From NCBI GenBank assembly GCA_963752235.1, contig CAVVXL010000011.1:128599-192598 (forward strand): DNA of 64,000 nucleotides, in the 5' to 3' direction. This stretch comes from an uncultured Acidobacteriota bacterium (GTDB taxonomy: Bacteria > Acidobacteriota > Thermoanaerobaculia > Multivoradales > UBA5704). Every line of letters begins with the position of its first letter. Position 1 is the first letter of the stretch. Shown one piece after another: positions 22,269 through 36,631 of the stretch. The position numbers and the translations under genes were made by a program. The notes under the pieces are model-generated. The model did not search any database. It saw only the letters and a program-made list of their open reading frames with translations, and was not told the origin of the DNA.

Positions 22269-25200
22269 CTATCCGGCCGCGCGCAGCTCCTCGGCCGCAT
22301 GATCGAGGACCATGCGCACGGTCTCTCCCAGGGTCTGCGCGGAGAACGGCTTCTGCAGCGAGACGGGCGCCTCCGGCCCGCCGTCGGAGAGTAGCTCCTC
22401 GTTGTAACCCGAGATGAAGACCACCCGCGTCATCGGGCGCTCGGCGCGCAGCCTCCGGGCGAGCTCCGATCCCTTCATCTCCGGCATGGTGACGTCGGTG
22501 AGCAGCAGCTGGATCGAGCCGCGGTGGAGGCGCGAGATGACCAGCGCCTCCTCGCCCGACCCCGCCTGGAGCACCCGATACCCGCGGCTGACCAGGATCT
22601 GGTGCAGCACGGCGCGCACCTCCTCCTCGTCCTCGACCAGCAGGATCGTCTCCGACCCGCGGTCCGAGGCGCTGGCCGGCACCCCGCCGCGGGCCCCTTC
22701 GCTCTCCTGGGTGACCGGCAGATAGACCGAGAAGGTGGCCCCCTCCCCCGGCGCGCTGTTGACGAAGATCTGGCCGCCGCTCTGGCGCACGATGCCGTAG
22801 GCGGTCGACAGGCCGAGCCCCGTCCCCTCCCCCTTGGTGCTGAAGAACGGCTCGAAGACGCGCCCTTGCGTGACCGTGTCCATGCCGACGCCGGTGTCGG
22901 TCACCGTCAGCAGGACGTAGGAGCCCGGCAGGACGTCCGCGTGGGGGGCCGCCGGACCGTCCGCACCGTCGGCGACAATCTCGAGCGGCACGGTACGCAG
23001 GTTGAGGCGGCCGCCGGTCGGCATCGCGTGGCGGGCGTTGACGGCGAGATTGACGATCACCTGCTCGAGCTGCCCCGGGTCGATCTTGACCTTGCCGAGC
23101 TCGGGGTGGAGGTTGGTGGCCAGGTGGATGTCCTCGCCGAGCAGCCGCTGGAGCATCTTCTCGAGCCCCGAGACCACCCCGTTGAGGTTCATCACCCGGG
23201 TCTCCATCGGCTGCCGGCGGGCGAAGGCGAGGAGCTGCTTGGTGAGCGCCGCCGCGCGCTGCCCCGCCTCCTTGATGCCGGTCAGGTTGCGGGTGAGGAA
23301 GGCGTCCTCCTCGTAGCGCTCGAGCAGCAGGTCGCTGTAGCCGAAGATGGCGAGCAGGCAGTTGTTGAAGTCGTGGGCGACGCCGGCCGAGAGGCGGCCG
23401 ATCGCCTCCATCTTCTGCGAATGGAGGAGCTGGCGCTGGAGCGTCTTGTTCTCGGCCTCGTCGCGCTTGCGCTGCGCGATGTCGCGGATGGCGACCACCG
23501 AGACCTCCTCGCCCTGGAAGAGGTAGCGCTTGCCGGCGATCTCGAGGTCCACCGTCGAGCCGTCGCTCTTGAAGCCGACGCTCTCGCGGGGGACGCCCGC
23601 GAGGTCGACCTCGTCGGCGACCAGGTCGGAGAGCCGGCGGCCGAGGATCTCGTCCGGGTCGCGGCCGAAGATGGCGAGCAGCGCGTGGTTGACCTCGAGC
23701 ACCACGCCGTTGCGGACGATGGCGATCCCTTCGAGGGTGGCCTCGAAGAGGGTGCGGAAGCGCTCCTCGCTGCGCCGGATCTCCTCCTCGGCGGCCTTGC
23801 GCTGGGCGATCTCCTGCTGCGCCTTGTCATAGAGGCGAACGTTCTCGGCCATCGGGGCGATCTGGTTGGCGACGGTCGACAGCAGGTGGATGTCGCTCGC
23901 CGGGAAAAAATCGTCCGGGTCGCGCCGGCCGATCAGCCAGACGCCGACGGTCTGCGCCTGCACGATGAGCGGGATCACCAGCCGCACCCAGGAGAGCGTG
24001 GGATCGGCGGGGCCCTGCGGCAGGTAGCGGCCGCTCTGCGCGAGCAGGGCCTGCAGCGCCTCGCGCGCCGGCTCCGGCCCGCCGCCCGGCACCGCCTGCT
24101 CGTAGAGGGTCTCCCGGCGCCCCTCCGCGAAGAGATAGAGCGCGGACTGGCGGATCAGCAGGGTGGGCAGGATCTCCTCGGCGACCACCCGCCCGAGGAC
24201 CTCGCGGTCGAAGGCGGTGGGAATCCGCTCCGAGACGATGCCGATCACCTCCTCCGCCGTGTGCTTGATGCCGAAGACGTAGCGGTCGACCAGCGCCTGG
24301 AAGCGGTCGCGCAGCAGCGGCACCGCCGCCATGTAGGCGAGGGAGACCGCGAGCAGCGTCGCCAGGAAGTCGCCGGTGATCTGTTTCCAGTGACTGCAGA
24401 TGGCGAAGAAAACGATCGTGTACGACGAGAACAGGATCGCCGAGAAGGTGTAGATGCCGAGGAAGCGGTTGGCCCGCAGCTCGAGGGCGCCGAGGCGATG
24501 CTTGTAGATGGCATAGAGGTAGCTCATCGGCAGGATCGGGATCGACGTCGCCGAGATGCCGAGCATGAAGGGGTAGAAATTGCGGAAGTCCTGGGCAACG
24601 TGGCGGAACCAGGCGAGCAGCACCCCGTGGAAGACCACGAAGGGGACCAGCCCGAGGGTCACGCCGAACAGCATGATGCGCACCGCCACCTTGGTGGCCG
24701 GGTCGACCGGCAGGAAGAGCCGGACGAGGAGCAGCATCAGGGAGAGCAGGACGCCCGCCAGCGCATACCAGACGAACGAGTATTCGAGCTTCTGGAGCAG
24801 CAGGAAGAAATCGAGAACGGACAGCGTGAGCGCGACGCCGTAGAAGAAGACCTGCCCCACCCGCTGCACCCGCTTGCCGAGCAGATCGCTGGGCAGGATG
24901 GTGTGCAGGTGCAGCGAGAGCGGCAGGGAGAACCAGATCACGACGTGGAACAGGAAGGCGGCGCCCGCGGTGCGGGCCGCGAACCCCGACGAGATCCAGA
25001 GAGCGGTCACGTAGCTGAACAGGATCAGAACCAGCCAGCGTTCGTCGCGGGGGCGCAGGAAGATGATGACGACCGTCCCCATCAGCCAGAAGACGAGGGG
25101 CGAGAACATGTCGTAGAGGAGCTGCGAGATCTCGACACGCATCCCGCGGAGGCGGATGTCGCGTTCGAACGTCCGGCCGTCGCGGATGAAACGGATCGGG

Positions 25201-25502
25201 GCCGTCCCGTGCTTGCCGAACAGCCCGGGAACCGACAGATGGCGATCGTGGACGAAGTTCTGGAAATCGACCCCGCGGATCGAGATCACCTGATCGCCCA
25301 CCGTGAGGCAGCCCCCCGGCGGCCCGACGCACGGATAGGCCGAGACGACCTTCCAGTCGGTCGAGCTCAGCGTAAAGCCGAGATCGGGAAAGGCAGCGAC
25401 GTACGAATAGTAGACGCAGGGGAGGAGGACGAGCAGCGAGACGAGGACCAGCAGGAGGTCCAGCGCCTTCCAGGAGGAGGAGGAGGAGTGTCGGGTATCC
25501 AT
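22269..25502 (-). CDS. polytopic hybrid sensor histidine kinase: TM1, PDZ-like domain, ~9 TM, GAF, PAS, HisKA, HATPase, REC
   Basis: VGDQVISIRGVDF...IRFIRDGRTFERDIRL (PDZ-like). H-box AGVAHDFNN. G-boxes DTGVGM and GTGLGLS. REC: ILLVEDEEEV...LLLTDVTMPEMKG. Confidence 0.9.
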   Translation of the reverse strand: MDTRHSSSSSWKALDLLLVLVSLLVLLPCVYYSYVAAFPDLGFTLSSTDWKVVSAYPCVGPPGGCLTVGDQVISIRGVDFQNFVHDRHLSVPGLFGKHGTAPIRFIRDGRTFERDIRLRGMRVEISQLLYDMFSPLVFWLMGTVVIIFLRPRDERWLVLILFSYVTALWISSGFAARTAGAAFLFHVVIWFSLPLSLHLHTILPSDLLGKRVQRVGQVFFYGVALTLSVLDFFLLLQKLEYSFVWYALAGVLLSLMLLLVRLFLPVDPATKVAVRIMLFGVTLGLVPFVVFHGVLLAWFRHVAQDFRNFYPFMLGISATSIPILPMSYLYAIYKHRLGALELRANRFLGIYTFSAILFSSYTIVFFAICSHWKQITGDFLATLLAVSLAYMAAVPLLRDRFQALVDRYVFGIKHTAEEVIGIVSERIPTAFDREVLGRVVAEEILPTLLIRQSALYLFAEGRRETLYEQAVPGGGPEPAREALQALLAQSGRYLPQGPADPTLSWVRLVIPLIVQAQTVGVWLIGRRDPDDFFPASDIHLLSTVANQIAPMAENVRLYDKAQQEIAQRKAAEEEIRRSEERFRTLFEATLEGIAIVRNGVVLEVNHALLAIFGRDPDEILGRRLSDLVADEVDLAGVPRESVGFKSDGSTVDLEIAGKRYLFQGEEVSVVAIRDIAQRKRDEAENKTLQRQLLHSQKMEAIGRLSAGVAHDFNNCLLAIFGYSDLLLERYEEDAFLTRNLTGIKEAGQRAAALTKQLLAFARRQPMETRVMNLNGVVSGLEKMLQRLLGEDIHLATNLHPELGKVKIDPGQLEQVIVNLAVNARHAMPTGGRLNLRTVPLEIVADGADGPAAPHADVLPGSYVLLTVTDTGVGMDTVTQGRVFEPFFSTKGEGTGLGLSTAYGIVRQSGGQIFVNSAPGEGATFSVYLPVTQESEGARGGVPASASDRGSETILLVEDEEEVRAVLHQILVSRGYRVLQAGSGEEALVISRLHRGSIQLLLTDVTMPEMKGSELARRLRAERPMTRVVFISGYNEELLSDGGPEAPVSLQKPFSAQTLGETVRMVLDHAAEELRAAG

Positions 25503-25722: not shown

Positions 25723-25917
25723 TCAAGCGTGGGCGATTCCAATGCCCGAGCCCGTAGGATCGGCAGGATCGTTGACGGGAGGCCACTCCGACCATCCGGG
25801 CGACGCGTTCGCCAGCATCGCCTTCCTGTCGAGCTCACCCACACGGCGCAGGATCTGGAACAGGAAGCTGGTCTCATTCTTGGCCGCAAAACGGGTACCG
25901 AATTCACTCATTGACAT
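25723..25917 (-). CDS. 64-aa candidate precursor peptide pepA (MSMSEFGTRFAAKNETSFLFQILRRVGELDRKAMLANASPGWSEWPPVNDPADPTGSGIGIAHA)
   Basis: GGGAGGG sits 7 nt before the ATG. It is a paralogue of pepB (same length, shared leader, WxxWPP box) and lies between the prenyl-synthase-like gene and the kinase. Confidence 0.7.
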   Translation of the reverse strand: MSMSEFGTRFAAKNETSFLFQILRRVGELDRKAMLANASPGWSEWPPVNDPADPTGSGIGIAHA

Positions 25918-26262
25918 GATAGATCCCTCCCGGTTAAAGCTTTCAACCCATTCAAGGTTTGAGTGTCGATGGACGGAAATCCACGGGGTTTCGCGCTTCC
26001 GGGCGGGGCGCGCGCCGGCCCGCGTGCCGCCATCACCGGCCTGACGGAGCGCGAGCGCCAGGAAATTTGGCGAGCTCGGGGCGAGGAAATCGGATTCGCA
26101 GGAAGATTCTCGTTCAGCCGGGCCGGCTGGAGAAGCTTGACTGCGCTGCTCAACGTATCCCGACAGAACGTGAGCATTTCAAAAACTCCTAGAGCATCTG
26201 CGGCGGAGCGCCGGAGACGCTTGAAGTATAAGCCGCGACGAGATCCGGACTCGAACCTCGCC

Positions 26263-27216
26263 TCAGTGGAGCGCCAGCATCGAGGGATCCTCGACGCCGA
26301 CCCTTTCCAGCAATCGATACAACGGCCGCGTATGCACTTCGATCAGCTGTTCGACCGGTTCCGAATACCGCAACGGTATCCCGGCGAACACCCGCTGCAA
26401 TTCATGCGAGAGCTCGACCAGCTTGAGCGTGCAATAGCTGACCGCGCCGCTGCGGAAGAGAATCCTCTGCGCCGCGGCGAGCGCTTCCGGATCTTCGACC
26501 CGCGCGGAAAGCCGCACGAAATCCTCCTGCTCGGCGTGCCCCGCGGTCATCGCGTAAAGCAGCGGCAGGCTGTTCGACCGCCGCTGCCAGTCAGCGCGCG
26601 CCGGCGTTTCGAGCGCGTCCGTGAGGTCGTCGCTGACCTGGATGAAACGGCCGAGAGCGCGCCCCAGAAGGGCGAGCTGTCCGGCCGCCTGGGGCGCCGC
26701 GCCGCCGAGCAGCGCGCCCATGCGCAACGCCTCGCCGAACAGCGGCGGAGTCTTGCTCTCGACCACCTGCCAGTATTCCCGTTCGTTCGCCAGCTCCCGC
26801 GCGTCGAGGTGCTGCCCGTAGCAGGTGGCGATCGACATCTCAGCGAAGCTCGCCTGCACCGCCGTACGGACCGCCGCGGGCGCCTCGGCCTGCTCGAGCA
26901 GCAGGTGGCCCGCGGCCTGGAACGCCAGCCCCAGGTTCGCCGCGCGCCCCGCTCCGATCAGGTGGTAGTCGCCCAGCGGGTCCTCGTCCAACATGTCGTC
27001 CACCAGATGGATGCTGATCACCGAGCAGAGCACCGCCGCCGCCGCGGGAAGCGCCGCCTCCTCCGTGCCGCCCACCGCCAGGGAAGCGGTTACCGGGTGC
27101 TCCCAGACCGAGATCGCATCCTTGTGGGTGACCCGTTCGACCACCTCCTGCATCAAGGGCCAGGAGGCCGCCATGGGCAATTTGTTAATTCTCGATTTTA
27201 ATTCATTAAATCGCAC
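26263..27216 (-). CDS. polyprenyl-synthase-fold protein, ComQ-like candidate peptide prenyltransferase
   Basis: FARM-like IHLVDDMLDED, SARM-like IQVSDDLTD, ESKTPPLF. No GGKRxR or RRG motifs. GTG start with GAGGGAG 7 nt upstream. Confidence 0.85.
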   Translation of the reverse strand: MRFNELKSRINKLPMAASWPLMQEVVERVTHKDAISVWEHPVTASLAVGGTEEAALPAAAAVLCSVISIHLVDDMLDEDPLGDYHLIGAGRAANLGLAFQAAGHLLLEQAEAPAAVRTAVQASFAEMSIATCYGQHLDARELANEREYWQVVESKTPPLFGEALRMGALLGGAAPQAAGQLALLGRALGRFIQVSDDLTDALETPARADWQRRSNSLPLLYAMTAGHAEQEDFVRLSARVEDPEALAAAQRILFRSGAVSYCTLKLVELSHELQRVFAGIPLRYSEPVEQLIEVHTRPLYRLLERVGVEDPSMLALH

Positions 27217-27250
27217 CGCAAAAACTCCCTCTTTGCGAAATCATTTAGAA

Positions 27251-27282
27251 CGGCCCCGGAAGGAATCGCCTCCCGGGAGCCG
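27251..27282 (-). terminator. hairpin downstream of pepB (9-bp stem with a bulged A)
   Basis: CGGCCCCGG-N13-CCGGGAGCCG, read directly; 77-108 nt after the pepB stop. Confidence 0.25.
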
Positions 27283-27358
27283 GCCACTTCTTGACGATCA
27301 GCATAAAACCGCAGGACGACAAATAAGCAGATTTCATGCCGATGAGCAGTCGAACCCT

Positions 27359-27553
27359 TTAGGCTTGCATGGCGAGCGAAAGGGCGCCATCACCGGCCGG
27401 CGGCCACGCGCCCCAGTCGACCAGGATGTTGTCGGTTCCTTCCGCCAGCATGGCGCGGACATCCTCGACTAGGCTCAGATTCCGCAGCGCCTGGAAAAGA
27501 TGGCCTTCTTCACGTTTGGACGTCAGCTTCGAATAGAAATCATGGATCTGCAT
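27359..27553 (-). CDS. 64-aa candidate precursor peptide pepB (MQIHDFYSKLTSKREEGHLFQALRNLSLVEDVRAMLAEGTDNILVDWGAWPPAGDGALSLAMQA)
   Basis: Internal ATG of ORF 27359..27601, with GGGGAGAG 7 nt upstream. Paralogue of pepA. Confidence 0.7.
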   Translation of the reverse strand: MQIHDFYSKLTSKREEGHLFQALRNLSLVEDVRAMLAEGTDNILVDWGAWPPAGDGALSLAMQA

Positions 27554-27816: not shown

Positions 27817-29088
27817 TCAGCTCAACGGAGAGGACGGCGCGGCCCCGAGCGGCTCGAGCACGCTCGGGCGGTCGGCCTCGGAGCCCCGCTTGAGGAGCTC
27901 GGCGAGCTCGCGGCCGGGCAAGGGACGCTGGAAGAAATAGCCCTGCGCGTAGTCGATGCCGAGCAGGCGGAGCACCTCCGCGTCCTCGGCGGTCTCGACC
28001 GCCTCCATCACCGTCGCCGTGCCGGCGCGCGCCGCCATCTCCGCCGTGCTCTGGACGATGATCTGCTTGAACGGATCGTGCGCCAGCCCGCGGCAGAAGG
28101 TGCCCGAGATCTTGAGGAAGTCCGGATGGAGGTCCTGGAACAGGTTGAGGTTGCTCGACCCCTCGCCGAAATCGTCGAGCGCGATGCGGAAGCCCCGCTC
28201 GCGCAGCCGCTGCAGGGTCGACGCGAAGGCGCTGGGATTGACGATCGTCTGCTGCTCGGTGAGCTCGAGGACGATGTCTTTCTCCTGCAACCCCGCGGCG
28301 TGCACGGCGTCGCAGAGCCGCGCGGCGAACTCGGGGTTGGTCAGCGACCGCGGCTGCACGTTGAGGAACGTGGCGAGGGTGTTGCCGAGGTAGACCACCT
28401 CGGTCAGGGCGGCATGGATGCAGATCATGTCCGCCTCGAAGAGGAGCTCCTTCTGCGCCGCGTAGGCGAGGAAGACCGCGGGGCTCCCCAGCACCGAGTG
28501 GATCGGCCCGCGCGCCAGGCTCTCGACTCCGAACACCTCGAAGCGCAGGGCGGCGTCCTGCAGCTTGACGACCGGCTGCAGGACGGCGCGGATCAGGTTG
28601 GCCGCCATGAAGTCCTCGAGCAGCTCGACGTGCTGCACCTCCCCCTCTCCCTCGAGGGGAACGCCGGGGGCGAGGCAGACCGCGCGGCGGTCCAGCAGGT
28701 AGCCGCGCAGCCGCGTCAGCCCTTCGGACTTCTCGAGCACCGCGGTGACGCCGAGGACGGAGCACAGGTCGCGCACCGCCTGGTCGACGTAGCCGCTCAG
28801 CACGTAGACCGCGGTGTCGGGGAAGTTGGCGGTGACGAAGCGGACGAGGCGCATGCCGTCGAGCCCGCCGAGCTGCGAGACCGAGAGGTCGGTGATCACC
28901 ACGTCGAAGCGGAAGCACCGCAGGAGGGCCTCGGCGGCCTCGATCTCCATGCAGGTGGTCAGCTCGATACCCGGCAGCCGGAGGCAGGCAGCCAGCGTGT
29001 CGACCACGATCGACTCATCGTCGAGGATCAGGACCCGAAGCACGGCGTCAGTGTCTTTCCATCCGGAGCGAGGAACCGCGCCAGGCAT
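27817..29088 (-). CDS. response regulator with REC and EAL (c-di-GMP phosphodiesterase) domains
   Basis: REC: VLILDDES...VVITDLSVSQLGGLDG. EAL domain: VLELTEQ, ALDDFGEGSSNL, LKISGTF, MEAVETAED, AQGYFFQRP. Confidence 0.85.
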   Translation of the reverse strand: MPGAVPRSGWKDTDAVLRVLILDDESIVVDTLAACLRLPGIELTTCMEIEAAEALLRCFRFDVVITDLSVSQLGGLDGMRLVRFVTANFPDTAVYVLSGYVDQAVRDLCSVLGVTAVLEKSEGLTRLRGYLLDRRAVCLAPGVPLEGEGEVQHVELLEDFMAANLIRAVLQPVVKLQDAALRFEVFGVESLARGPIHSVLGSPAVFLAYAAQKELLFEADMICIHAALTEVVYLGNTLATFLNVQPRSLTNPEFAARLCDAVHAAGLQEKDIVLELTEQQTIVNPSAFASTLQRLRERGFRIALDDFGEGSSNLNLFQDLHPDFLKISGTFCRGLAHDPFKQIIVQSTAEMAARAGTATVMEAVETAEDAEVLRLLGIDYAQGYFFQRPLPGRELAELLKRGSEADRPSVLEPLGAAPSSPLS

Positions 29089-29154: not shown

Positions 29155-30705
29155 TCAACCGCCGCCCCCTTCCTGCTCGTCGTCCCGGCATCCCGTCTGC
29201 TTTCTCCACTCGTAGAGCTCGCCGATGTCAGTTTCCGAAACCAGGTTGTAGCATCTCAGCAGGCGCTTGGCCAGCGGGTCTCCGGGCGGACGTCCCCAGA
29301 CGTAGACGGCGTCGACCAGGTCCGCGTTCGGCTTGACGCGGTAGGAGCCCGGGTCGAGCGCCACGTTCGGGGCGTCGGGGAAAGTGACCGCGCGGCGGAA
29401 GCGCACCGGGAAGAAGTCGAACTTCCCCTCGTAGTTGTCCCAGTCGATCAGCCCCTTCTCGAGGGCCGTCCAGGAGATCGCGTGGGAGAGCACGTCGGTG
29501 GGGCCGGTGTGCGCGAAGTTGAGCGCCAGGGCGCGGGTGTCCGGCTTGACCGGCGCGAGACCGGCCAGATAGCGCTCGACCTCGCCGCCGAGCTCGCGGT
29601 AGCGCTCGGTCAGGTAGACGACGTTCAGCAGGGCCACCAGGGCCAGCGCCAGGGCGGCGATCGTCTCGCGCCGCCGCGCCTCCCCCGCCCCCACCCCCGG
29701 CGAGGACCGCAGCGACAGCCAGGGGAGCAGGACGAGGAAGGGATAGAGGCTGAGGCGGTTCTTGATCAGCCAGCCGCCGGCCATCCCGTCCGGGCTGACG
29801 AAGTAGACCCCGGCGAGCAGCAGGGCGAGGAGCAGAAAGGCGTTCTCGGCGCCGCGGTGCCGGGCCCGCCACACGGTGGCGGCGAGCAACGCCAGGAAGA
29901 GCGCGGCGAGGGCGATCCCCAGCCAGCGCTGGACGTCGCCGAGGGTGAACAGCACCTGGAGCCCGGCGAAGAATCCCACGAGCTGGCCGGCCGACCAGGC
30001 GGTCGGGTGGCTCTCGCCCCCCTGATGGGTGAGGAACCAGAGCGGCAGCACGATCTGCGGCAGCAGGATCGGGACGTGCCGGAGGTGCCGCCGCCAGCTC
30101 TGCCGCCTGAGGGTCGCGAGCCAGAGCACCGCGATCGCGAGCAGGGCGAGGGCGAGCGACAGGATGTGCGAGGCGTAGCAGAGCCAGAGCAGCAGGTTGA
30201 TCCCCACCGCGAAGCGCCACCCCGGGCGCTCGCGGTGCCGCCACCAGAAGCCGAGCGCGAAGAGGAACCAGGCGACGCTGAGCGAGAAGTTGTAAAAGCC
30301 GTACTGGAAGAGCTGGTGATAGGCGAACGGGAAGGCCAGGAAGGCCGGCCAGCGCTCCTCCGGCCGCACCGAGCCGGCGAGGTACCAGGCGCCGGCCAGG
30401 AAAGTGAGCACGTAGCCGCTGACGAAGAGCTTTTCGGCCACGGCCGGCGGCACGGCGGTCATCAGCAGCGCCATGCCGGCGTGGCCGATCCAGTTGGGAT
30501 AGGGCTTGCCGTTCACCTCGTAGTAGCGGGCGAAGAGCGGGTAGTGCCGGGTGTCGGCGTGGTGCAGCAGGATCCAGGCGTTGTAGGTGTGACAGGGGCC
30601 GTCCGTGGTCGGCACGTGGCGCACCACCCAGAAAGGCAGCACGTAGAGCACGGCCAGCGCGAAGAACAGGAGGCGCAGCCGGCGGGGGGAGAGCGCGAGC
30701 GTCAT
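29155..30705 (-). CDS. polytopic membrane protein of unknown function, paralogue 2
   Basis: C-terminal 516 aa of ORF 29155..33012, starting MTLALSPRRL. Shares the DGPCHTYNAWIL and PYPNWIGH motifs with 30702..32261. ATGA overlap with paralogue 1. Confidence 0.75.
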   Translation of the reverse strand: MTLALSPRRLRLLFFALAVLYVLPFWVVRHVPTTDGPCHTYNAWILLHHADTRHYPLFARYYEVNGKPYPNWIGHAGMALLMTAVPPAVAEKLFVSGYVLTFLAGAWYLAGSVRPEERWPAFLAFPFAYHQLFQYGFYNFSLSVAWFLFALGFWWRHRERPGWRFAVGINLLLWLCYASHILSLALALLAIAVLWLATLRRQSWRRHLRHVPILLPQIVLPLWFLTHQGGESHPTAWSAGQLVGFFAGLQVLFTLGDVQRWLGIALAALFLALLAATVWRARHRGAENAFLLLALLLAGVYFVSPDGMAGGWLIKNRLSLYPFLVLLPWLSLRSSPGVGAGEARRRETIAALALALVALLNVVYLTERYRELGGEVERYLAGLAPVKPDTRALALNFAHTGPTDVLSHAISWTALEKGLIDWDNYEGKFDFFPVRFRRAVTFPDAPNVALDPGSYRVKPNADLVDAVYVWGRPPGDPLAKRLLRCYNLVSETDIGELYEWRKQTGCRDDEQEGGGG

Positions 30706-32261
30706 GGGCTCGGCCGCGCCCCCGCGCGTTCGTTCTCCATCCGCTCCCACAGCACGCCGCCGCCGGTGTCGGAGAGGGGCCGGTAGAAGTTGCCCAGCCG
30801 GATGCCGAGCGAATGGCCCGGCGGCATCTGCCAGGTGTAGACGTAGTCCGCGCGGCGCTTCCACTGCCACATGCGCAGCTGCCCCGGGTGGGCCTCGATG
30901 TCGCCGATCGGCGGCTTCGACACGCCGGCGCGGAACTCGACCGGGAAGAAGTCGAAGGTCGCCTCGTAGTTGTCCCAGTCGACCAGCCCGCGCTCGAGGG
31001 CGCGGTAGCTCATGGCGTGGCCGAGGATGTCCACCTCGATCCCCCGCCCCGTGTGCTGGAAAAGGAGCGGCAGGACCCGGCTGCCGGGACGGACCGCGTC
31101 GAGCCCGGCGAGGTAGCCCGCCATCTCGCCGCTCAAGGTCCGGTACCAGCGGGCCACGTAGACGAGGTTGAAGAGCGCCACCAGGAAGAGGACCGCGACG
31201 CCGGCCCGGCGGCCCCGTGCGCCGAAGCCGGGCGCGAGCCAGGGGATCAGCAGCAGGTAAGGGTAGAGGCAGAGCCGGTTCTTCAGCATCGAGCCGCCGG
31301 ACATCCCCTCGGGGCTGACGAAGTAGAGCACCGCGAAGAGGGCGGCGAGGAGGAGGAAGGCGCGCTCCCCGTGTGTCGTCCCGCGCGGCTGGCGCCACCC
31401 CTCCCGCCGCAGGGTGAGGAGGAGGAGGGCGAGGAAGGCGAGCGCCATCCCCCAGGCCAGCCAGCGCTGGGGGCCGCCGAAGGCCGACATCGCCCCGATG
31501 CCGAAGAAGTAGGTCAGGAGCTTCCCGAGCGGCCAGTAGGCGGCGACGGTGGCGCCCCCCTCCCGCGAGAAATACCAGGCCGGCAGCACGATCTGCGGCG
31601 CCAGCACGGCGACGTGCGCCAGGTGGCGGCGCCAGGAGACCAGGCCGTCGTCGAGCACCGTGGCGAGCCAGAGCACCGCGATGGCGAGCAGGGCGAGGGC
31701 GAAGGAGAGGATGTGCGAGAAGTAGCAGAGCCAGAGCAGCAGGTTGATCCCCACCGCGTAGCCGGGCGAGAGGGGGCGCTCGCGGTGCCGCCACCAGCAG
31801 CCGACGATGAAGGGGAAGAGGGCGAGGCTGACCGCGAAGTTGTAGAACCCGAACTGGAACAGGAAGTTGAAGACGAAGGGGAAGGCGAGGAAGGCGAGCC
31901 AGCGGTCCCCCGATCGTACCGAGCCCACCAGGTACCACATTCCCGCCAGGAAGGTCAGCACGTAGCCGGTCGCCAGCAGCTTCTCCGCGACGAGAGGCGG
32001 CACCACGAACATCAGGAGCGCCATCACCCCGTGCCCGATCCAGTTCGGGTAGGGGGCGGCGTTGACCTGGTAATACTGCTGGAAGAGGGGGTACTGGGCG
32101 GGATTCGCGGACTGGCGGAGGATCCACGCGTTGTAGGTGTGGCACGGCCCGTCCACCGTCGGCAGGTAGTGGACGATCCAGAACGGCACGGCGTAGAGGC
32201 CGGCCAGCGTGAAGTAGAGCGCGCGGATCCAGCGCCCGTTGAGATCTGTCGTCGGTTCCAT
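30702..32261 (-). CDS. polytopic membrane protein of unknown function, paralogue 1
   Basis: 519-aa ORF with ~10 hydrophobic segments plus a ~150-aa C-terminal soluble part; collinear with paralogue 2. Confidence 0.75.
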   Translation of the reverse strand: MEPTTDLNGRWIRALYFTLAGLYAVPFWIVHYLPTVDGPCHTYNAWILRQSANPAQYPLFQQYYQVNAAPYPNWIGHGVMALLMFVVPPLVAEKLLATGYVLTFLAGMWYLVGSVRSGDRWLAFLAFPFVFNFLFQFGFYNFAVSLALFPFIVGCWWRHRERPLSPGYAVGINLLLWLCYFSHILSFALALLAIAVLWLATVLDDGLVSWRRHLAHVAVLAPQIVLPAWYFSREGGATVAAYWPLGKLLTYFFGIGAMSAFGGPQRWLAWGMALAFLALLLLTLRREGWRQPRGTTHGERAFLLLAALFAVLYFVSPEGMSGGSMLKNRLCLYPYLLLIPWLAPGFGARGRRAGVAVLFLVALFNLVYVARWYRTLSGEMAGYLAGLDAVRPGSRVLPLLFQHTGRGIEVDILGHAMSYRALERGLVDWDNYEATFDFFPVEFRAGVSKPPIGDIEAHPGQLRMWQWKRRADYVYTWQMPPGHSLGIRLGNFYRPLSDTGGGVLWERMENERAGARPSP

Positions 32262-32318: not shown

Positions 32319-33512
32319 CTAAGTTTCGTCTTTCCGGAAACGTTCGCCCACCCGCCGGTAGGCCTCGCGGAAGGGGATCCCTTCGTCGAGCACCAGGCGG
32401 TAGGCCTCCTCGGCGGCGTGGATGCCGGGATCGAGGCGGATGCGCTCGGGGTGGAAGCGGACGCCGGGGAGGGCGGCGGCGGCGATGGCGAGGGTCGAGC
32501 TTGCGAGGTCGAGGCCGCGGAAGAGGGGCGCCTTGAGGAGCTGGAGATCGCGGTGATAGCCGGAGGTCAGCTTGGCGGGGATGGCGAGCGCCTCGGCGAG
32601 GGCTGCGTGGGCGGTCGCCGTGCGGCCGCGCATCAGCTCGAAGACGTCGGGGTTGCGCTTCTGCGGCATGATCGAGGAGCCGGTGGTCATCGCCGCCGGC
32701 AGGCTGACGAAGGCGAATTCGGAGCTGGCGAAGAGGACGAGGTCGGCGGCGAGCCGCCCCAGGTCCTGCATCAGCAGGACGATCTCGAACAGCACCTGCG
32801 ACTCCGCCTTGCCGCGCGAGAGCTGGACGGCGGTCACCGGCTCCTGGACGGCGGCGAAGCCGAGGCTGCGGCGGGTCGCCTCGCGGTCGAGCGGGAGGAG
32901 CGGCACGCCGTAGCCGGCGCCCGAGCCCAGCGGGTTCTTCTCGATCCGCCGCGAGCAGGCGAGGAGCCCCTCGGCGTCGTCGCGCAGCTCGGCGGCGAAG
33001 CCGCCGGCCCACAGCGCGACCGAGCTCGGCATCGCCTGCTGGAGATGGGTGTAGCCGGGGAGCACCGTGGCCGCCTCGCGCTCCCCCAGCTCGTGGAGCG
33101 CCGCGGCGACCTCCCGCGCGCCACCGGCCAGCGCCGCGACCTCATCGCGCAGATAGAGACGGAGGGCGGCGAGGACCTGGTCGTTGCGCGAGCGCCCGAG
33201 ATGGAGGCGCCCGCCCGCCTCGCCGATCCGCGCCGTCAGCCGGCTCTCGAGCGCGGTATGGACGTCCTCGTCCGCCAGCTCGATCCGCCACTCCCCCGCC
33301 GCGTGCCCGGCGGCGAGCGCCGCGAGCCCGGCGCGGATCGCCGCCAGGTCGGAGGCCGGCAGCAGCCCCACCGCCGCCAGCATCTCGGCGTGGGCGATCG
33401 AGGCCGTGACGTCATAGGGGACGAGACGCGCGTCGAGGCGATGGTCCTCGCCCGCGGTGTAGCGCAGCACCCGCTCGTCGAGCGGCTCCCCCTTGTCCCA
33501 CAGCCGGGTCAT
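32319..33512 (-). CDS. argH: argininosuccinate lyase
   Basis: HLGRSRNDQV, GYTHLQQAMP and GSSIMPQKRNPD signatures. ATGA overlap with the upstream gene. Confidence 0.9.
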   Translation of the reverse strand: MTRLWDKGEPLDERVLRYTAGEDHRLDARLVPYDVTASIAHAEMLAAVGLLPASDLAAIRAGLAALAAGHAAGEWRIELADEDVHTALESRLTARIGEAGGRLHLGRSRNDQVLAALRLYLRDEVAALAGGAREVAAALHELGEREAATVLPGYTHLQQAMPSSVALWAGGFAAELRDDAEGLLACSRRIEKNPLGSGAGYGVPLLPLDREATRRSLGFAAVQEPVTAVQLSRGKAESQVLFEIVLLMQDLGRLAADLVLFASSEFAFVSLPAAMTTGSSIMPQKRNPDVFELMRGRTATAHAALAEALAIPAKLTSGYHRDLQLLKAPLFRGLDLASSTLAIAAAALPGVRFHPERIRLDPGIHAAEEAYRLVLDEGIPFREAYRRVGERFRKDET

Positions 33513-35605
33513 GCCACGGCCTCGACCGGCTCCGCGGTCTCCGCCCCCCCGGAAAGCCGCTCGGCGTAGGCGCGCACCAGCCGGGTGTAGAAGCGGGCTC
33601 CGGCTAGGATCTCGCTCTCGAGCACGAACTCGTCCAGGGTGTGCGAGCGCTCGGTCCGCCCCGGGCCGCACTTGACGGCGGGGACGCCGGCCAGGAAGAC
33701 CATGTCGGAGAGGGTCGGCGAGCCGAACAGGGCGGCCTCGGGGCGCGCCGCGCGGGCCGCCACGACGAGCGGCGACCCTTCGTCGGTCGCCAGCGGGCGC
33801 AGGCGGTCCGAGAGCACCCGCACCTCCCCGGTCACTACCTGGCGAATGCGCTCGACGATCTCCGCGACGCCGAGCGCCGGCGTGGTGCGCACGTCGAGGA
33901 TGGCCGTCGCCTCCCCCGGGACGACGTTGCGCGCCGTGCCGGCGGCGAGCTGTGTCGGCTCGAGGGTGATCGCGCCGAGGCGCGGATGGCGCGGCCCGAG
34001 ATCCACCCCTTCGAGGGCCACCAGGTCGCGGGCGAGGCGGCGCGCGGCGTTGCCCGCCCCGAGCGCCGCCGCGTGGGCGGCGTGGCAGGCGTCGCCGCGG
34101 GCCACCAGCTCCAGGACCAGCAGCCCCTTCTGCGCCACGGCGAGGTCGAGGCCGGTCGGCTCCCCCACCACCGCCGCGGCCGGCGGCGTGCCGCGGCGGG
34201 CCAGCTCGGCGAGCACCGCCTCGGTGCCGGTCCCCCGCGTCTCCTCCCCCTCGACCAGGGCGAGAGCGAGGGTGAACGGCAGCTTCGCCTCGCCGAAGGC
34301 GAGGAACGCGGCAGTCATCGCGGCGACCGCGGCCTTGGCGTCGTTCGATCCCAGCCCGTAGACGCGTCCGTCGACCGCCTGCACGTCCCAGGGGTCGCGC
34401 GTCCAGCCGGGGGCCGGCGGCACGGTGTCGAGATGAGTATCGAAGAGGAAGAGCGGTCCCTCGCCCACGGTCGCCAGCAGGGTCGCCCCCGCGGCGCCCA
34501 GGCGGGTCACCGCGACGCCGTTCTTGCGCAGCAGCCCGCTCAAGCGGTCGGCGACCGCCGCCTCGTCCCCCGAGACCGAAGGGATGGCGGTGATCGCGCG
34601 GTGGAGGGCCAGGATCTCGCGGTCGGGGAGCATCAGGAGCGCTCCCACCCCGGCGAGCGCTCCGGCGTTCATACCGGCCAGCTTTCCCGCCGCGGCCTCG
34701 GCGGGGGTGAGCACCCGCACGTCGTCGACCACCAGCGTCCCCACCCCTTCGTTGGTGAACACCTCGGCCAGCAGGCCGTCCGGCAGATCGTGGGAGAGGA
34801 TGTGCACCCGCCGCACCCCGCCCGCGAGCGCCGCCTCGATGGCGGAGGTCTTGGGCAGCATGCCGGCCACCACCCCGCCGGCGTCCTTCAGGCGGCGGAG
34901 CCCGGCGAGGTCGGTGTAGGAGACCAGGGAGCCCGCGTCGTCCGGCCGCTCGAGGATGCCGGCGGCGCCGGTGAGGAAAAGGAGCTTCTCGGCGCCGAGC
35001 GCCACCGCCAGCGCCGAGGCGATGGTGTCGGCATTGATATTGAGCAGCGTGCCGTCGTCGGCCGCCGAGAGGGGGCTGACCACCGGCACGTAGCCGGCGT
35101 CCATCAGCGCGGTCAGCACCCGCGGCTCGACGGCGGCGACGTCCCCCACGAAGCCGTAGTCCACCAGCTCTCCCCTGACCTCGACCGGCGGCCGCCGGCG
35201 GGCCCGGATCAGGCCGGCGTCGACTCCGGAGACCCCCACCGCCGGCAGCCCGACGAGGCGGCAGGCGGCGAGCAGGCGGGTATTGGCGGTGCCGTTCAGG
35301 ACCATCGTCGCCACCTCGAGCGCCGGGGCGTCGGTCACCCGCCGCCCCTCGACGAAGCGGCTCTCGGCGCCGAGGGCGCGGGCGAGCCGGGTCGACTGGG
35401 TGCCGCCGCCGTGCACCAGCACGACGCGGATCCCCACCTGGTGGAAGACCTCGATCTGCTCCACCAGGTCGCGCACGGTCGATTCGCGCTCGAGGGCGCC
35501 GCCCCCCGCCTTGATGACGAAGGTCTTCCCCTTGAAGATCCGGATGTAGGGGACCGCGTGCTTGAGGGCGGTCGCCTCGGCGGTGCGCTGGCCGACGTCT
35601 TTCAT
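33509..35605 (-). CDS. argB: fusion of acetylglutamate kinase (N) and an M20 acetylornithine/acetylcitrulline deacetylase-like domain (C)
   Basis: FVIKAGGGAL...VLVHGGG...LLNINAD (ArgB). After a ~25-aa Ala/Gly linker: FDTHLDTVP, GLGSNDAKAAVAAM, VEGEETRGTG (M20). A single 698-aa ORF with no stop. Confidence 0.8.
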   Translation of the reverse strand: MKDVGQRTAEATALKHAVPYIRIFKGKTFVIKAGGGALERESTVRDLVEQIEVFHQVGIRVVLVHGGGTQSTRLARALGAESRFVEGRRVTDAPALEVATMVLNGTANTRLLAACRLVGLPAVGVSGVDAGLIRARRRPPVEVRGELVDYGFVGDVAAVEPRVLTALMDAGYVPVVSPLSAADDGTLLNINADTIASALAVALGAEKLLFLTGAAGILERPDDAGSLVSYTDLAGLRRLKDAGGVVAGMLPKTSAIEAALAGGVRRVHILSHDLPDGLLAEVFTNEGVGTLVVDDVRVLTPAEAAAGKLAGMNAGALAGVGALLMLPDREILALHRAITAIPSVSGDEAAVADRLSGLLRKNGVAVTRLGAAGATLLATVGEGPLFLFDTHLDTVPPAPGWTRDPWDVQAVDGRVYGLGSNDAKAAVAAMTAAFLAFGEAKLPFTLALALVEGEETRGTGTEAVLAELARRGTPPAAAVVGEPTGLDLAVAQKGLLVLELVARGDACHAAHAAALGAGNAARRLARDLVALEGVDLGPRHPRLGAITLEPTQLAAGTARNVVPGEATAILDVRTTPALGVAEIVERIRQVVTGEVRVLSDRLRPLATDEGSPLVVAARAARPEAALFGSPTLSDMVFLAGVPAVKCGPGRTERSHTLDEFVLESEILAGARFYTRLVRAYAERLSGGAETAEPVEAVA

Positions 35606-35617
35606 GATCGTTTCTCC

Positions 35618-36631
35618 CTATCCTCTGATGAGCAGACGGTGGAGCAGCGCCATCTGCGCCCACATGCGGTTCCTTGCCTCGTGGACCACGACGCTGCGCG
35701 GCCCGTCCAGCACCTCGTCCTTCACCACCACGTTGCGCCGCACCGGCAGGCAGTGCATGAACCGGCAGTCCGGCGCGGCGTTCGCGAACCACTCCTCGCC
35801 CACGCACCAATCGCGGAGGGGGGCGCGGAAGGCCGCCTCGGCCCCCGGGTCGCCGTAGTGCAGGGGCGAGGTCCACGACTTGGCGTAGAGCACCCGCGCG
35901 CCTGCGAGCGCCTCCTCGCGGTCGGCGGTCTCGCGCAGCGAGCCGCCCGAGAGCTCCGCCGCCGTACGCGCCCGCGCCATCACCGGCTCCGGCAGGGCGA
36001 ACCCTTCGGGGCGCAGCACGGTGACGTCCATCCCGCGCAGCGCCGCCATGTGGACGGCGGCGGCGGGCACGGCGAGCGGCAGCGGCTTCGGGTGCCAGGC
36101 CCAGGAGAGGACGAACTTACCGCCGCGGGCTGGAATCCCCAGATCGTCCAGGGTCTTCCAGTCGGCCAGCGCCTGGCAGGGGTGATCGATCGCCGATTCG
36201 AGGTTGATCGCGGGCACGGGACAGGCCGCCGCCATGGCGCGGAAGGTCGTATCCGCGAGGTCGGCCGCGAGGTCCGCGCCGGCGGCGAAGGAGCGGATGC
36301 CGAGGGCGTCCGCGTACCCCGCCAGCACCGGGATCGCCTCGCGCACGTGCTCGGCCGCGGCGCCGTCCATCACCACCCCGTCGCGGGTCTCGAGCAGCCA
36401 GGTCCCCTGCCCGGGCGAGACCACGAACGAGCTGCCGCCGAGCCGCGCCATCCCCGCCTGGAAGGAGGCGAGGGTGCGCAGCGACGGATTGAAGAAGAGG
36501 AGGGCGAGGATCTTCCCCTTGAGCGCCTCCGGCTCCGGCCGCCGCTCGAGGCGGGAGGCGAGGCTCAGCAGCTCCTCGACCGCCTCGGGCGAGAGCTCGG
36601 CGAGGGAGAGGAAATCCTTCAGCTCCTTCAT
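35618..36631 (-). CDS. argF': N-acetyl- (or N-succinyl-) ornithine carbamoyltransferase-like transcarbamylase
   Basis: FFNPSLRTLASF (a divergent STRTR motif), DHPCQALAD, FMHCLPVRR. Confidence 0.75.
   Translation of the reverse strand: MKELKDFLSLAELSPEAVEELLSLASRLERRPEPEALKGKILALLFFNPSLRTLASFQAGMARLGGSSFVVSPGQGTWLLETRDGVVMDGAAAEHVREAIPVLAGYADALGIRSFAAGADLAADLADTTFRAMAAACPVPAINLESAIDHPCQALADWKTLDDLGIPARGGKFVLSWAWHPKPLPLAVPAAAVHMAALRGMDVTVLRPEGFALPEPVMARARTAAELSGGSLRETADREEALAGARVLYAKSWTSPLHYGDPGAEAAFRAPLRDWCVGEEWFANAAPDCRFMHCLPVRRNVVVKDEVLDGPRSVVVHEARNRMWAQMALLHRLLIRG

Follow-up and report, generated by a model that had tools for sequence, protein, structure and literature searches.

In the genome of an uncultured Acidobacteriota bacterium, two small open reading frames (ORFs), pepA and pepB, flank the gene of an enzyme of the isoprenyl diphosphate synthase (IPPS) superfamily, Q, and precede the gene of a hybrid histidine kinase, P, and our analysis indicates that this locus is probably a ComQXP-type module for a prenyl-tryptophan pheromone. 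The locus lies in a 64,000-nt stretch of contig CAVVXL010000011.1 (assembly GCA_963752235.1; positions 128,599-192,598), and this whole stretch is referred to below as the window. Given the position of the peptide genes on both sides of that of a ComQ-like enzyme and ahead of that of a kinase whose sensor is ComP-like, the peptides are most likely the precursors of lipid-modified signals. A first-pass annotation had seen in their conserved leader and variable core the mark of a precursor of a peptide made by the ribosome and modified after translation (RiPP) or of a pheromone, with tryptophan (Trp) as a putative ComX-like acceptor, and this proposal is strongly supported by Q itself, by the ComP-like sensor of P, by the strict pairing of peptide and enzyme genes, and by the existence of multi-core precursors. 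The five genes of the cluster are all encoded on the minus strand, in the order REC-EAL, pepB, Q, pepA and P, and their features are as follows.

27817..29088, minus strand: REC-EAL response regulator of 423 aa, which opens the cluster (Pfam Response_reg and EAL, E=1.6e-46)
27359..27553, minus strand: pepB, upstream-type precursor, 64 aa, with a predicted helical leader followed by the WGAW core and a tail
27404..27415, minus strand: pepB core W47-G-A-W50, proposed modification site (WxxW invariance)
26263..27216, minus strand: Q, IPPS-superfamily enzyme, 317 aa, GTG start (PF00348, hhalign, AlphaFold2)
26980..27000, minus strand: first aspartate-rich motif (FARM) of Q, D73-D-M-L-D-E-D79, predicted prenyl-diphosphate/Mg2+ site ([V/I]DD[M/L/I]LD in 65/65 family members)
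26617..26640, minus strand: second aspartate-rich motif (SARM) of Q, Q193-V-S-D196-D-L-T-D200, canonical, with a Gln ahead (Q..DD..D in 64/65)
25723..25917, minus strand: pepA, downstream-type precursor, 64 aa (conserved frame, Shine-Dalgarno site)
25783..25794, minus strand: pepA core W42-S-E-W45 (WxxW invariance)
22269..25502, minus strand: P, hybrid sensor histidine kinase, 1077 aa (Pfam GAF, PAS, HisKA, HATPase, REC)
24213..25502, minus strand: ComP-like sensor of P, residues 1-430 (hhalign to the ComP N-terminal family)

pepA and pepB are conserved paralogous genes

Both ORFs translate as first annotated (pepA 25917->25723, pepB 27553->27359, 64 aa each), and pepB is indeed nested in an 80-aa ORF with a TTG start (27601->27359). 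Each gene has a Shine-Dalgarno site ahead of its ATG, which in pepA is GGGAGGG at a distance of 7 nt, the spacing proposed for both genes, and in pepB is GGGGAG at about 9 nt. BLASTP gave no alignment of pepA with pepB; a Smith-Waterman alignment reached a score of 84 with 21 identities over 57 columns, which none of 20,000 shuffles attained (z=15), and every position said to be shared by the two peptides (M1, F6, K13, E15, LFQ, LR, AMLA and W..WPP) is found in it.

The nearest relative of the locus, L001 in an Acidobacteriota metagenome-assembled genome (MAG), carries a Q that is 91% and a REC-EAL protein that is 98% identical. The suggestion that the ratio of non-synonymous to synonymous substitution (dN/dS) be compared across orthologues was borne out as purifying selection, with values of 0.10 for pepA and 0.055 for pepB against L001; when all pairs are taken, the median lies near 0.39. 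In 16 orthologues of each gene the frame is kept without stops or frameshifts, and synonymous changes exceed non-synonymous ones, which is the opposite of the frame loss in syntenic loci, or conservation of nucleotides only, that had been named as grounds for rejection. The reading frames are conserved across phyla down to about 30% identity. We conclude that pepA and pepB are real, conserved, paralogous genes under purifying selection.

That the ORFs are chance frames, or their conservation that of a non-coding element, is an explanation with a negligible probability. It draws on the abundance of spurious ORFs in high-GC DNA and on the failure of BLASTP to detect similarity between pepA and pepB, but it is effectively refuted by the shuffle test (z=15) and by frames kept across phyla with synonymous above non-synonymous change, and it is further opposed by the 374 protein clusters described below, the Shine-Dalgarno sites, and an Rfam search of the region in which no family matched. 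Owing to its high GC content, the window does contain many spurious ORFs that are very long and overlap one another on the two strands. In one of them, at 32319-35876 (-), only about 280 of 1185 residues match Lyase_1, and ORF length alone is therefore unreliable here. Promoter and terminator consensus scans of the cluster returned nothing, a result that is uninformative for this phylum.

The shared length of 64 aa, which had been presented as a feature, is a coincidence, the length varying between 57 and 69 aa among orthologues. The tails had been described as divergent and as ending in Ala; they are variable, and the last residue is conserved as A or V rather than always as Ala. The pepA-type tails (25723-25745; orthologues in L001-L023) have a conserved [R/K/H]-A ending preceded by a hydrophobic residue (ARA, AHA, VKA, KKA), and the pepB-type peptides (27359-27380; orthologues in L001-L023) end in A or V. 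These constrained endings may have a role in processing or in the binding of the peptides by the PDZ-like loop of the sensor.

A large peptide family with a WxxW core

In an alignment of 38 sequences, F6, L23, R24, W47 and W50 (pepB numbering) are invariant, and M1 and L19 nearly so. A profile search of 1.84 billion representative proteins retrieved 374 clusters at E<=1e-3, nearly all of 50-75 aa, whose public copies are all annotated as "hypothetical protein" and lack a Pfam domain. WxxW occurs in 147 of the 150 best representatives, compared with 3.8% of composition-matched shuffles, and the three representatives that lack it differ in their tails from all other family members. The motif announced by the first-pass annotation as an invariant WxxWPP therefore stands in part: WxxW is invariant across the family, whereas PP follows it in 31/147 representatives and is specific to a clade. 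A Gly precedes WxxW in 63/147.

An AlphaFold2 model of pepB has three short helices in the leader (residues 3-11, 18-27 and 32-37), with block-mean predicted local distance difference test (pLDDT) values of 76-84 over residues 1-30, and a coil of lower confidence over the core. Some precursors contain two or three tandem GWxxW units, among them the Nannocystaceae peptides and the metagenomic proteins P0289 and P0306 (L139:97-357), in which two (GWPEWP x2) or three (GWxxW x3) core units follow a single leader. Such a multi-core layout is typical of RiPP precursors.

Peptides are paired with the enzyme in three phyla

Related loci were collected by an enzyme-anchored search of 185,579 species genomes with the 317-aa ORF between the peptides as query, and a 15-sequence peptide profile was run against the six-frame ORFs of the 69 loci returned and of the window. 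The family comprises 67 of these 69 loci, distributed over Acidobacteriota (Thermoanaerobaculia, Holophagales), Chloroflexota (mostly Anaerolineales) and one member of the Nannocystaceae. All profile matches are on the strand of the enzyme gene, directly upstream (pepB-type) or downstream (pepA-type) of it, and relaxed inspection added six divergent WxxW peptides. Every evaluable family locus thus has at least one peptide beside the enzyme on the same strand, all peptide-less family loci being cut by a contig edge, and the conservation in related genomes that the first annotation had proposed to look for extends over three phyla.

A P-type kinase adjoins Q in nearly all loci with enough flanking sequence, either on the same strand downstream (Acidobacteriota and many Chloroflexota) or divergently upstream (others). 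In the Acidobacteriota loci (L001-L038), wherever the flank is long enough to show it, REC-EAL lies directly upstream of the genes for peptide and enzyme; it is absent from the Chloroflexota loci. Two upstream copies and one downstream copy of the precursor are present in L010 (206-846, 2275-2460), two copies upstream of Q in each of L025, L028 and L030, and mostly one upstream copy in L031-L038 and the Chloroflexota loci; from this copy number and placement the ancestral arrangement appears to be X-Q-P, X standing for the precursor gene.

The only cultured carrier is Nannocystaceae bacterium ST9 (L050:7025-7466 (+), also L169), where two tandem precursors with two WxxW units each lie downstream of Q and are followed by an alpha/beta-hydrolase-domain protein. 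The remaining carriers are nearly all uncultured MAGs, which is probably why the family went unnoticed. One MAG labelled as Promethearchaeota (L054, JBHLNY010000227.1) has a Chloroflexota-like X-Q locus with a divergent P and a Q 58% identical to that of L059, and this contig is probably mis-binned bacterial DNA rather than an archaeal system.

Just upstream of REC-EAL in the window are two tandem paralogous proteins of about 510-520 aa with multiple transmembrane (TM) helices, at 29155-30690 (-) and 30702-32261 (-), for which no Pfam family was found. Their conservation ends with the closest relatives (L001-L014), and they are therefore probably outside the module. Eukaryote-style C-mannosylation of WxxW was considered and dropped, as these candidate genes are not conserved beyond the closest relatives and nothing else spoke for it.

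The membrane sensor of P is related to that of ComP

P consists of a 430-residue membrane region without a Pfam family, followed by GAF, PAS, HisKA, HATPase and REC domains. For comparison with the classical system, 40 Bacillus and Metabacillus comQXPA loci were fetched with ComA as bait and served as the reference for ComP, ComQ and ComX. In hhalign, the sensor family of P aligns with the ComP N-terminal family at 97.4% (E=1e-11, 313 columns), with reversed and block-shuffled controls at 2.5% or below, and the parts of the two sensors match in register, each only its counterpart (loop 82.8%, TM bundle 49.7%). This result is further strengthened by a search of 14,266 six-frame ORFs with a hidden Markov model (HMM) of the ComP sensor, which returned 19 ORFs at E<=10; 17 of these are P-type kinases, as are all three that reach E<=1e-3, the best having 1.1e-5 with a near full-length alignment.

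The predicted topologies agree as well. In P, a first TM helix at residues 13-31 is followed by an outside loop of about 100 aa that is PDZ-like and then by about 8 TM helices; the plan common to P and ComP is a first helix at 13-31, a loop of about 90-100 residues, weakly PDZ-like in ComP, and after it 8-9 TM helices. On these profile and topology comparisons, the membrane sensor of P is homologous to the Bacillus ComP sensor.

The sensor is coupled to different outputs

The same sensor is combined with several output modules. In L056 and L046 it is fused to HisKA_3 and HATPase, the kinase class of ComP, and in L062 to a similar kinase of about 840 aa in which GAF and HATPase were detected; in all three a REC-GerE (ComA-like) regulator adjoins the kinase. 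By gene content and domain composition, these Chloroflexota loci reconstitute the full ComQXPA-type layout and form a bridge to the classical arrangement. The kinase core in L053 and L059 is HisKA. In an Anaerolineales MAG (L045:6954-9725 (+)), a ComP-like sensor with a GAF domain is fused to HD-GYP without a kinase, and this fusion is a predicted one-component receptor with direct output to cyclic dimeric GMP (c-di-GMP), paralleling the REC-EAL partner of the Acidobacteriota. The REC-EAL protein of the window has the ESLAR, DDFG and EAVE motifs, and its adjacency, the sole basis here, suggests that the output in the window is probably c-di-GMP turnover by a REC-EAL phosphodiesterase.

Q resembles Trp prenyltransferases and retains a canonical SARM

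Q matches PF00348 (polyprenyl_synt) at E=1.3e-16 with 61 bits, Bacillus ComQ scoring 63 bits on the same model, and hhalign relates the Q family to the 40 ComQ sequences at 97.6% (E=3e-12; reversed control 0.3%). The AlphaFold2 model is a confident IPPS fold (pLDDT 89.5), and its top Foldseek matches are geranylgeranyl diphosphate (GGPP) and polyprenyl synthases with template modelling (TM) scores of 0.72-0.81, the indole prenyltransferase Ord1 being matched at 0.73.

Motifs were counted in 65 Q-family members and in the 40 Bacillus ComQ. The FARM is present throughout both sets, as [V/I]DD[M/L/I]LD in 65/65 and as D[IFLMV]xDDxED in 40/40, as is GQxxD ([G/A]QxxD in 65/65; 40/40 in ComQ), and K(T/S) is found in 65/65 Q-family members. 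The IPP (isopentenyl diphosphate)-binding GGKRxR is found in 0/65 of the Q family, and KRxRP in 0/40 of ComQ. The RRG motif is reduced to (P)RG in the family and to L-G in the window Q, the GK that follows the SARM in IPPS is replaced by P-A, which lies within a P-x-x-x-D-W that is family-specific and invariant (65/65), and the family profile aligns to IPPS structures in the Protein Data Bank (PDB) only from position ~37. The family-specific residues of Q are W38 and P-x-x-x-D-W210. The basic residues lost from the family correspond to those that hold the diphosphate of IPP in structures of farnesyl diphosphate synthase, and chain elongation by Q would on this account be unlikely.

The class of Trp prenyltransferases that resemble isoprenyl diphosphate synthases of the trans type (trans-IDS) is taken here as ComQ, StheQ, PalQ and the ChrPC P-domain, with Ord1 acting on free Trp. 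Q shares with it an all-alpha IPPS fold with a FARM, a conserved Gln before the SARM and, at sequence level, the loss of the IPP-binding basic residues. In such enzymes the indole N-H is recognised by a Gln upstream of the SARM together with the first Asp of that motif, an Asp that some characterised members keep for this purpose (PMC13290415). Q193 and D196 are invariant in the Q family, so the retained SARM is compatible with Trp prenylation, even as this motif sets the family apart from ComQ and StheQ.

It is very improbable that Q is an ordinary GGPP or polyprenyl diphosphate synthase and that the small proteins remain unmodified and assist or regulate the two-component system. Public names of Q homologues point that way ("geranylgeranyl pyrophosphate synthase" and "polyprenyl synthetase", with one JGI entry reading "competence protein ComQ"), as do the preserved FARM, GQxxD, K(T/S) and SARM and the canonical IPPS among the best fold matches. 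Canonical trans-IPPS, however, have all regions including GGKRxR and RRG and score above family cut-offs, and Q does neither: GGKRxR is absent in 65/65, the alignment to IPPS structures starts at about position 37, the post-SARM GK has given way to the invariant P-x-x-x-D-W, and all NCBIfam IPPS models fall far below their cut-offs (best 83 bits versus 450). A housekeeping IPPS would also have no reason to adjoin a WxxW peptide in every evaluable locus of three phyla. Q is thus like GGPP synthases in fold and four motifs, and unlike them in missing GGKRxR, the full RRG and the post-SARM GK and in possessing W38, P-x-x-x-D-W210 and a constant WxxW peptide partner. The best NCBIfam match, an encapsulin-cargo polyprenyl transferase, was dropped on account of the same 83 bits against a cut-off of 450.

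A further explanation, to which we give a small probability, is that Q acts on WxxW by a chemistry other than that of ComQ, namely bis-prenylation, a prenyl bridge between the indoles, or elongation on a peptide-bound prenyl group, by way of the SARM. In its favour, the two Trp are invariant at i/i+3, whereas ComX needs one; P-x-x-x-D-W after the SARM is invariant and specific to the family; and the DDxxD of the SARM is kept here (64/65) and replaced in ComQ and StheQ, where restoring it in StheQ kills activity (10.64898/2026.08.29.745113). Yet the first SARM Asp is kept in some Trp prenyltransferases (PMC13290415), and ordinary mono-prenylation explains the data.

Comparison with known prenyl-Trp systems

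Censuses place complete ComQXPA only in Firmicutes (Bacilli, Clostridia), and full-text literature searches for ComQ-like or ComQ-homologue systems returned nothing on Acidobacteria or on this peptide family. The window locus resembles Bacillus ComQXPA in having a small Trp-containing precursor beside an IPPS-superfamily enzyme and a kinase, an enzyme that is homologous (97.6% in hhalign) with the FARM kept and GGKRxR and RRG not present, a sensor that is homologous over about 313 residues with the same topology, and, as far as comparisons between species suggest, X, Q and sensor as the fast-evolving parts. As in ComX, the precursor is short, its leader is conserved and its Trp lies where the C-terminal region varies. 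The hosts differ, being diderm Acidobacteriota, Chloroflexota and Myxococcota, and so does the layout, with two precursor paralogues flanking Q and an apparently ancestral position of X upstream of Q, not downstream. A natto-type ComX, as in Bacillus spizizenii TU-B-10 (comX at L072:3371-3592 (+); also L070, L075 and L078), contains N-W-P-P-I-E and thus W-P-P around the prenylated Trp, yet it has a single Trp and its leader has no similarity to those of pepA and pepB.

StheQ of Sphaerobacter thermophilus (Chloroflexi), which prenylates a Trp of the neighbouring StheX, is a non-Firmicute parallel as an IPPS-fold enzyme with an adjacent Trp peptide of about 69 aa (10.64898/2026.08.29.745113). 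In StheX the leader is ordered and the C-terminus, which holds the Trp, is disordered, comparable to the pepB model, and StheQ shares with Q a FARM of the form D-(D/E)-x-x-D-x-D and a Gln three residues before its second motif (10.64898/2026.08.29.745113). Compared by the residues quoted in that report, StheQ differs in its pseudo-SARM N215-D-x-x-D, where the Q family has D in 65/65; StheX lies downstream of stheQ and ends in W-W-x, and no kinase is mentioned (10.64898/2026.08.29.745113). Sphaerobacter was not retrieved by two enzyme-anchored scans of the 185,579 species genomes, the second of which started from the Chloroflexia-class member, so StheQ is a separate lineage.

PalP, PalX and PalQ of Paenibacillus alvei form a RiPP gene cluster of kinase, precursor and Trp-prenyltransferase, and share with the window locus the three-gene set with an enzyme of the isoprenoid-synthase superfamily (PMC10853753). 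PalX differs in its NHLP-type leader and strictly C-terminal Trp (PMC10853753), whereas pepA and pepB have 10-20 residues after the Trp pair, and PalQ, compared by its description, forms a cluster of its own and was formerly annotated as a terpene synthase.

Divergence gradient and the weight of the evidence

Identities to the window were averaged over 17 Acidobacteriota loci, with the Bacillus loci as control. They fall from REC-EAL (89.7%), kinase plus REC (82.8%) and GAF-PAS (82.4%) through Q (69.3%) and sensor (63.3%) to pepB (58.2%) and pepA (50.7%), and in Bacillus from ComA (94.9%) and the ComP transmitter (77.0%) to ComQ (58.5%) and the ComP sensor (51.7%), with ComX at 25-99%. Both systems rank their modules alike, X, Q and sensor being fastest, in a comparison of species, not strains, and this pherotype-like gradient is suggestive. 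Membrane sensors generally evolve faster than catalytic domains.

On another reading, the peptides could be Q-modified RiPP natural products, such as a lipopeptide antibiotic or surfactant, whose production or immunity is regulated by the kinase without binding of the peptide. We consider this unlikely, though it is not without grounds, given that PalPXQ was described as a RiPP cluster with a kinase (PMC10853753), that the Nannocystaceae locus has Q and X without a kinase and then an alpha/beta hydrolase, and that multi-core precursors are typical of such RiPPs. Against it, the sensor is specifically homologous to that of ComP, which has the Q-modified ComX as its ligand; as in Bacillus pherotypes, fast divergence is common to sensor, Q and X; and the cluster has no conserved gene for a transporter, for immunity or for a protease.

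Several observations weigh against a ComQXP-type pheromone module and keep our estimate below certainty. Among the peptides, neither pepA nor pepB matches Pfam ComX (PF05952) at E<=0.1, the positive control from B. spizizenii doing so at E=6.8e-10, and hhalign of the peptide family with the 40 ComX sequences gives 3.6%, that is, no similarity. NCBIfam and Pfam leader models, Nif11 and NHLP included, likewise gave no match to either peptide at E<=0.1, and the loose likeness to ComX and Nif11 leaders noted at first is unsupported as homology. Regarding the enzyme, phmmer scores Q at E=3.5e-8 against ComQ and at 1e-8 against the best PDB IPPS, Ord1 stands at Foldseek rank 33 below canonical IPPS, and neither ComQ nor Ord1 is nearer to Q, by sequence and fold, than ordinary GGPP synthases are. 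Its canonical SARM (Q..DD..D) occurs in 64/65 of the Q family and 0/40 of ComQ, the pseudo-SARM Q..ND in 0/65 and 38/40, a register confirmed by the hhalign alignment. The change N215D removes 98% of StheQ activity (10.64898/2026.08.29.745113), and as Q has D at that site, a different acceptor-site logic or reaction is possible. The window kinase has a HisKA (PF00512) core with a C-terminal REC, not HisKA_3, and its cluster contains neither an Hpt (histidine phosphotransfer) protein nor a ComA-like regulator. The Nannocystaceae locus (L050) has Q and X without a ComP-like kinase. The divergence gradient, finally, is suggestive only, since it comes from between-species data and membrane domains evolve fast.

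Placed beside ComQXPA, the window locus thus departs in four features: pepA and pepB are not ComX homologues and have a WxxW core with two invariant Trp, Q keeps the canonical DDxxD where ComQ has an N-D pseudo-SARM, the kinase is GAF-PAS-HisKA-HATPase-REC rather than HisKA_3, and the partner regulator is REC-EAL rather than ComA. It is a variant of the system and not a member.

Proposed mechanism

Under the reading as a ComQXP-type pheromone module, pepA and pepB would be ribosomal precursors with a helical leader of about 37 residues, including the conserved F6, L19 and L23-R24, which would dock the precursor onto Q. Through its intact Mg2+/prenyl-diphosphate site, Q would prenylate one or both Trp of WxxW, and the lipidated C-terminal part would be released and exported. 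The ComP-homologous sensor of the adjacent hybrid kinase would sense the lipidated peptide, and the signal would probably go to REC-EAL, with a change in the level of c-di-GMP, and not to a transcription factor of the ComA type. We infer the prenylation, the Trp that is modified, the length of the donor, processing and export, the relation of ligand and receptor, and the c-di-GMP output.

A more far-reaching version combines these steps into an ancient ComQXP-related lipopeptide pheromone system of diderm soil Acidobacteriota and of Chloroflexota that is wired to c-di-GMP turnover and not to transcription and whose Q, unique in retaining the two Asp-rich motifs, modifies both Trp of WxxW, by bis-prenylation or by an indole-indole prenyl bridge. 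Its probability is low but appreciable. If modification of both Trp were true, the RiPP chemotype would be one that ComX, StheX and PalX do not show.

Implications for signalling in Gram-negative soil bacteria

Prenylated-Trp pheromones were thought to be confined to Firmicutes until a 2026 preprint described one Chloroflexi enzyme and peptide pair without a receptor or known role (10.64898/2026.08.29.745113). The present locus defines a much larger, unannotated family, with 374 clusters of peptides and no fewer than 555 homologues of the enzyme, and it would correct a widespread mis-annotation of its members as "hypothetical protein" and "GGPP synthase". Enzyme, precursor and ComP-homologous receptor are linked in Acidobacteriota and Chloroflexota, and enzyme and precursor in a myxobacterium; such linkage across phyla suggests that the ComQXP module is ancient and modular, its sensor being fused to HisKA_3, HisKA-REC or HD-GYP outputs. 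Q is in addition a candidate Trp-prenyltransferase with a short recognition unit, (G)WxxW, for peptide lipidation. For the biology of the carriers, these findings predict that Gram-negative soil bacteria which are abundant and for the most part uncultured use peptides to signal from cell to cell, and that this signalling may control c-di-GMP and hence biofilm formation or motility.

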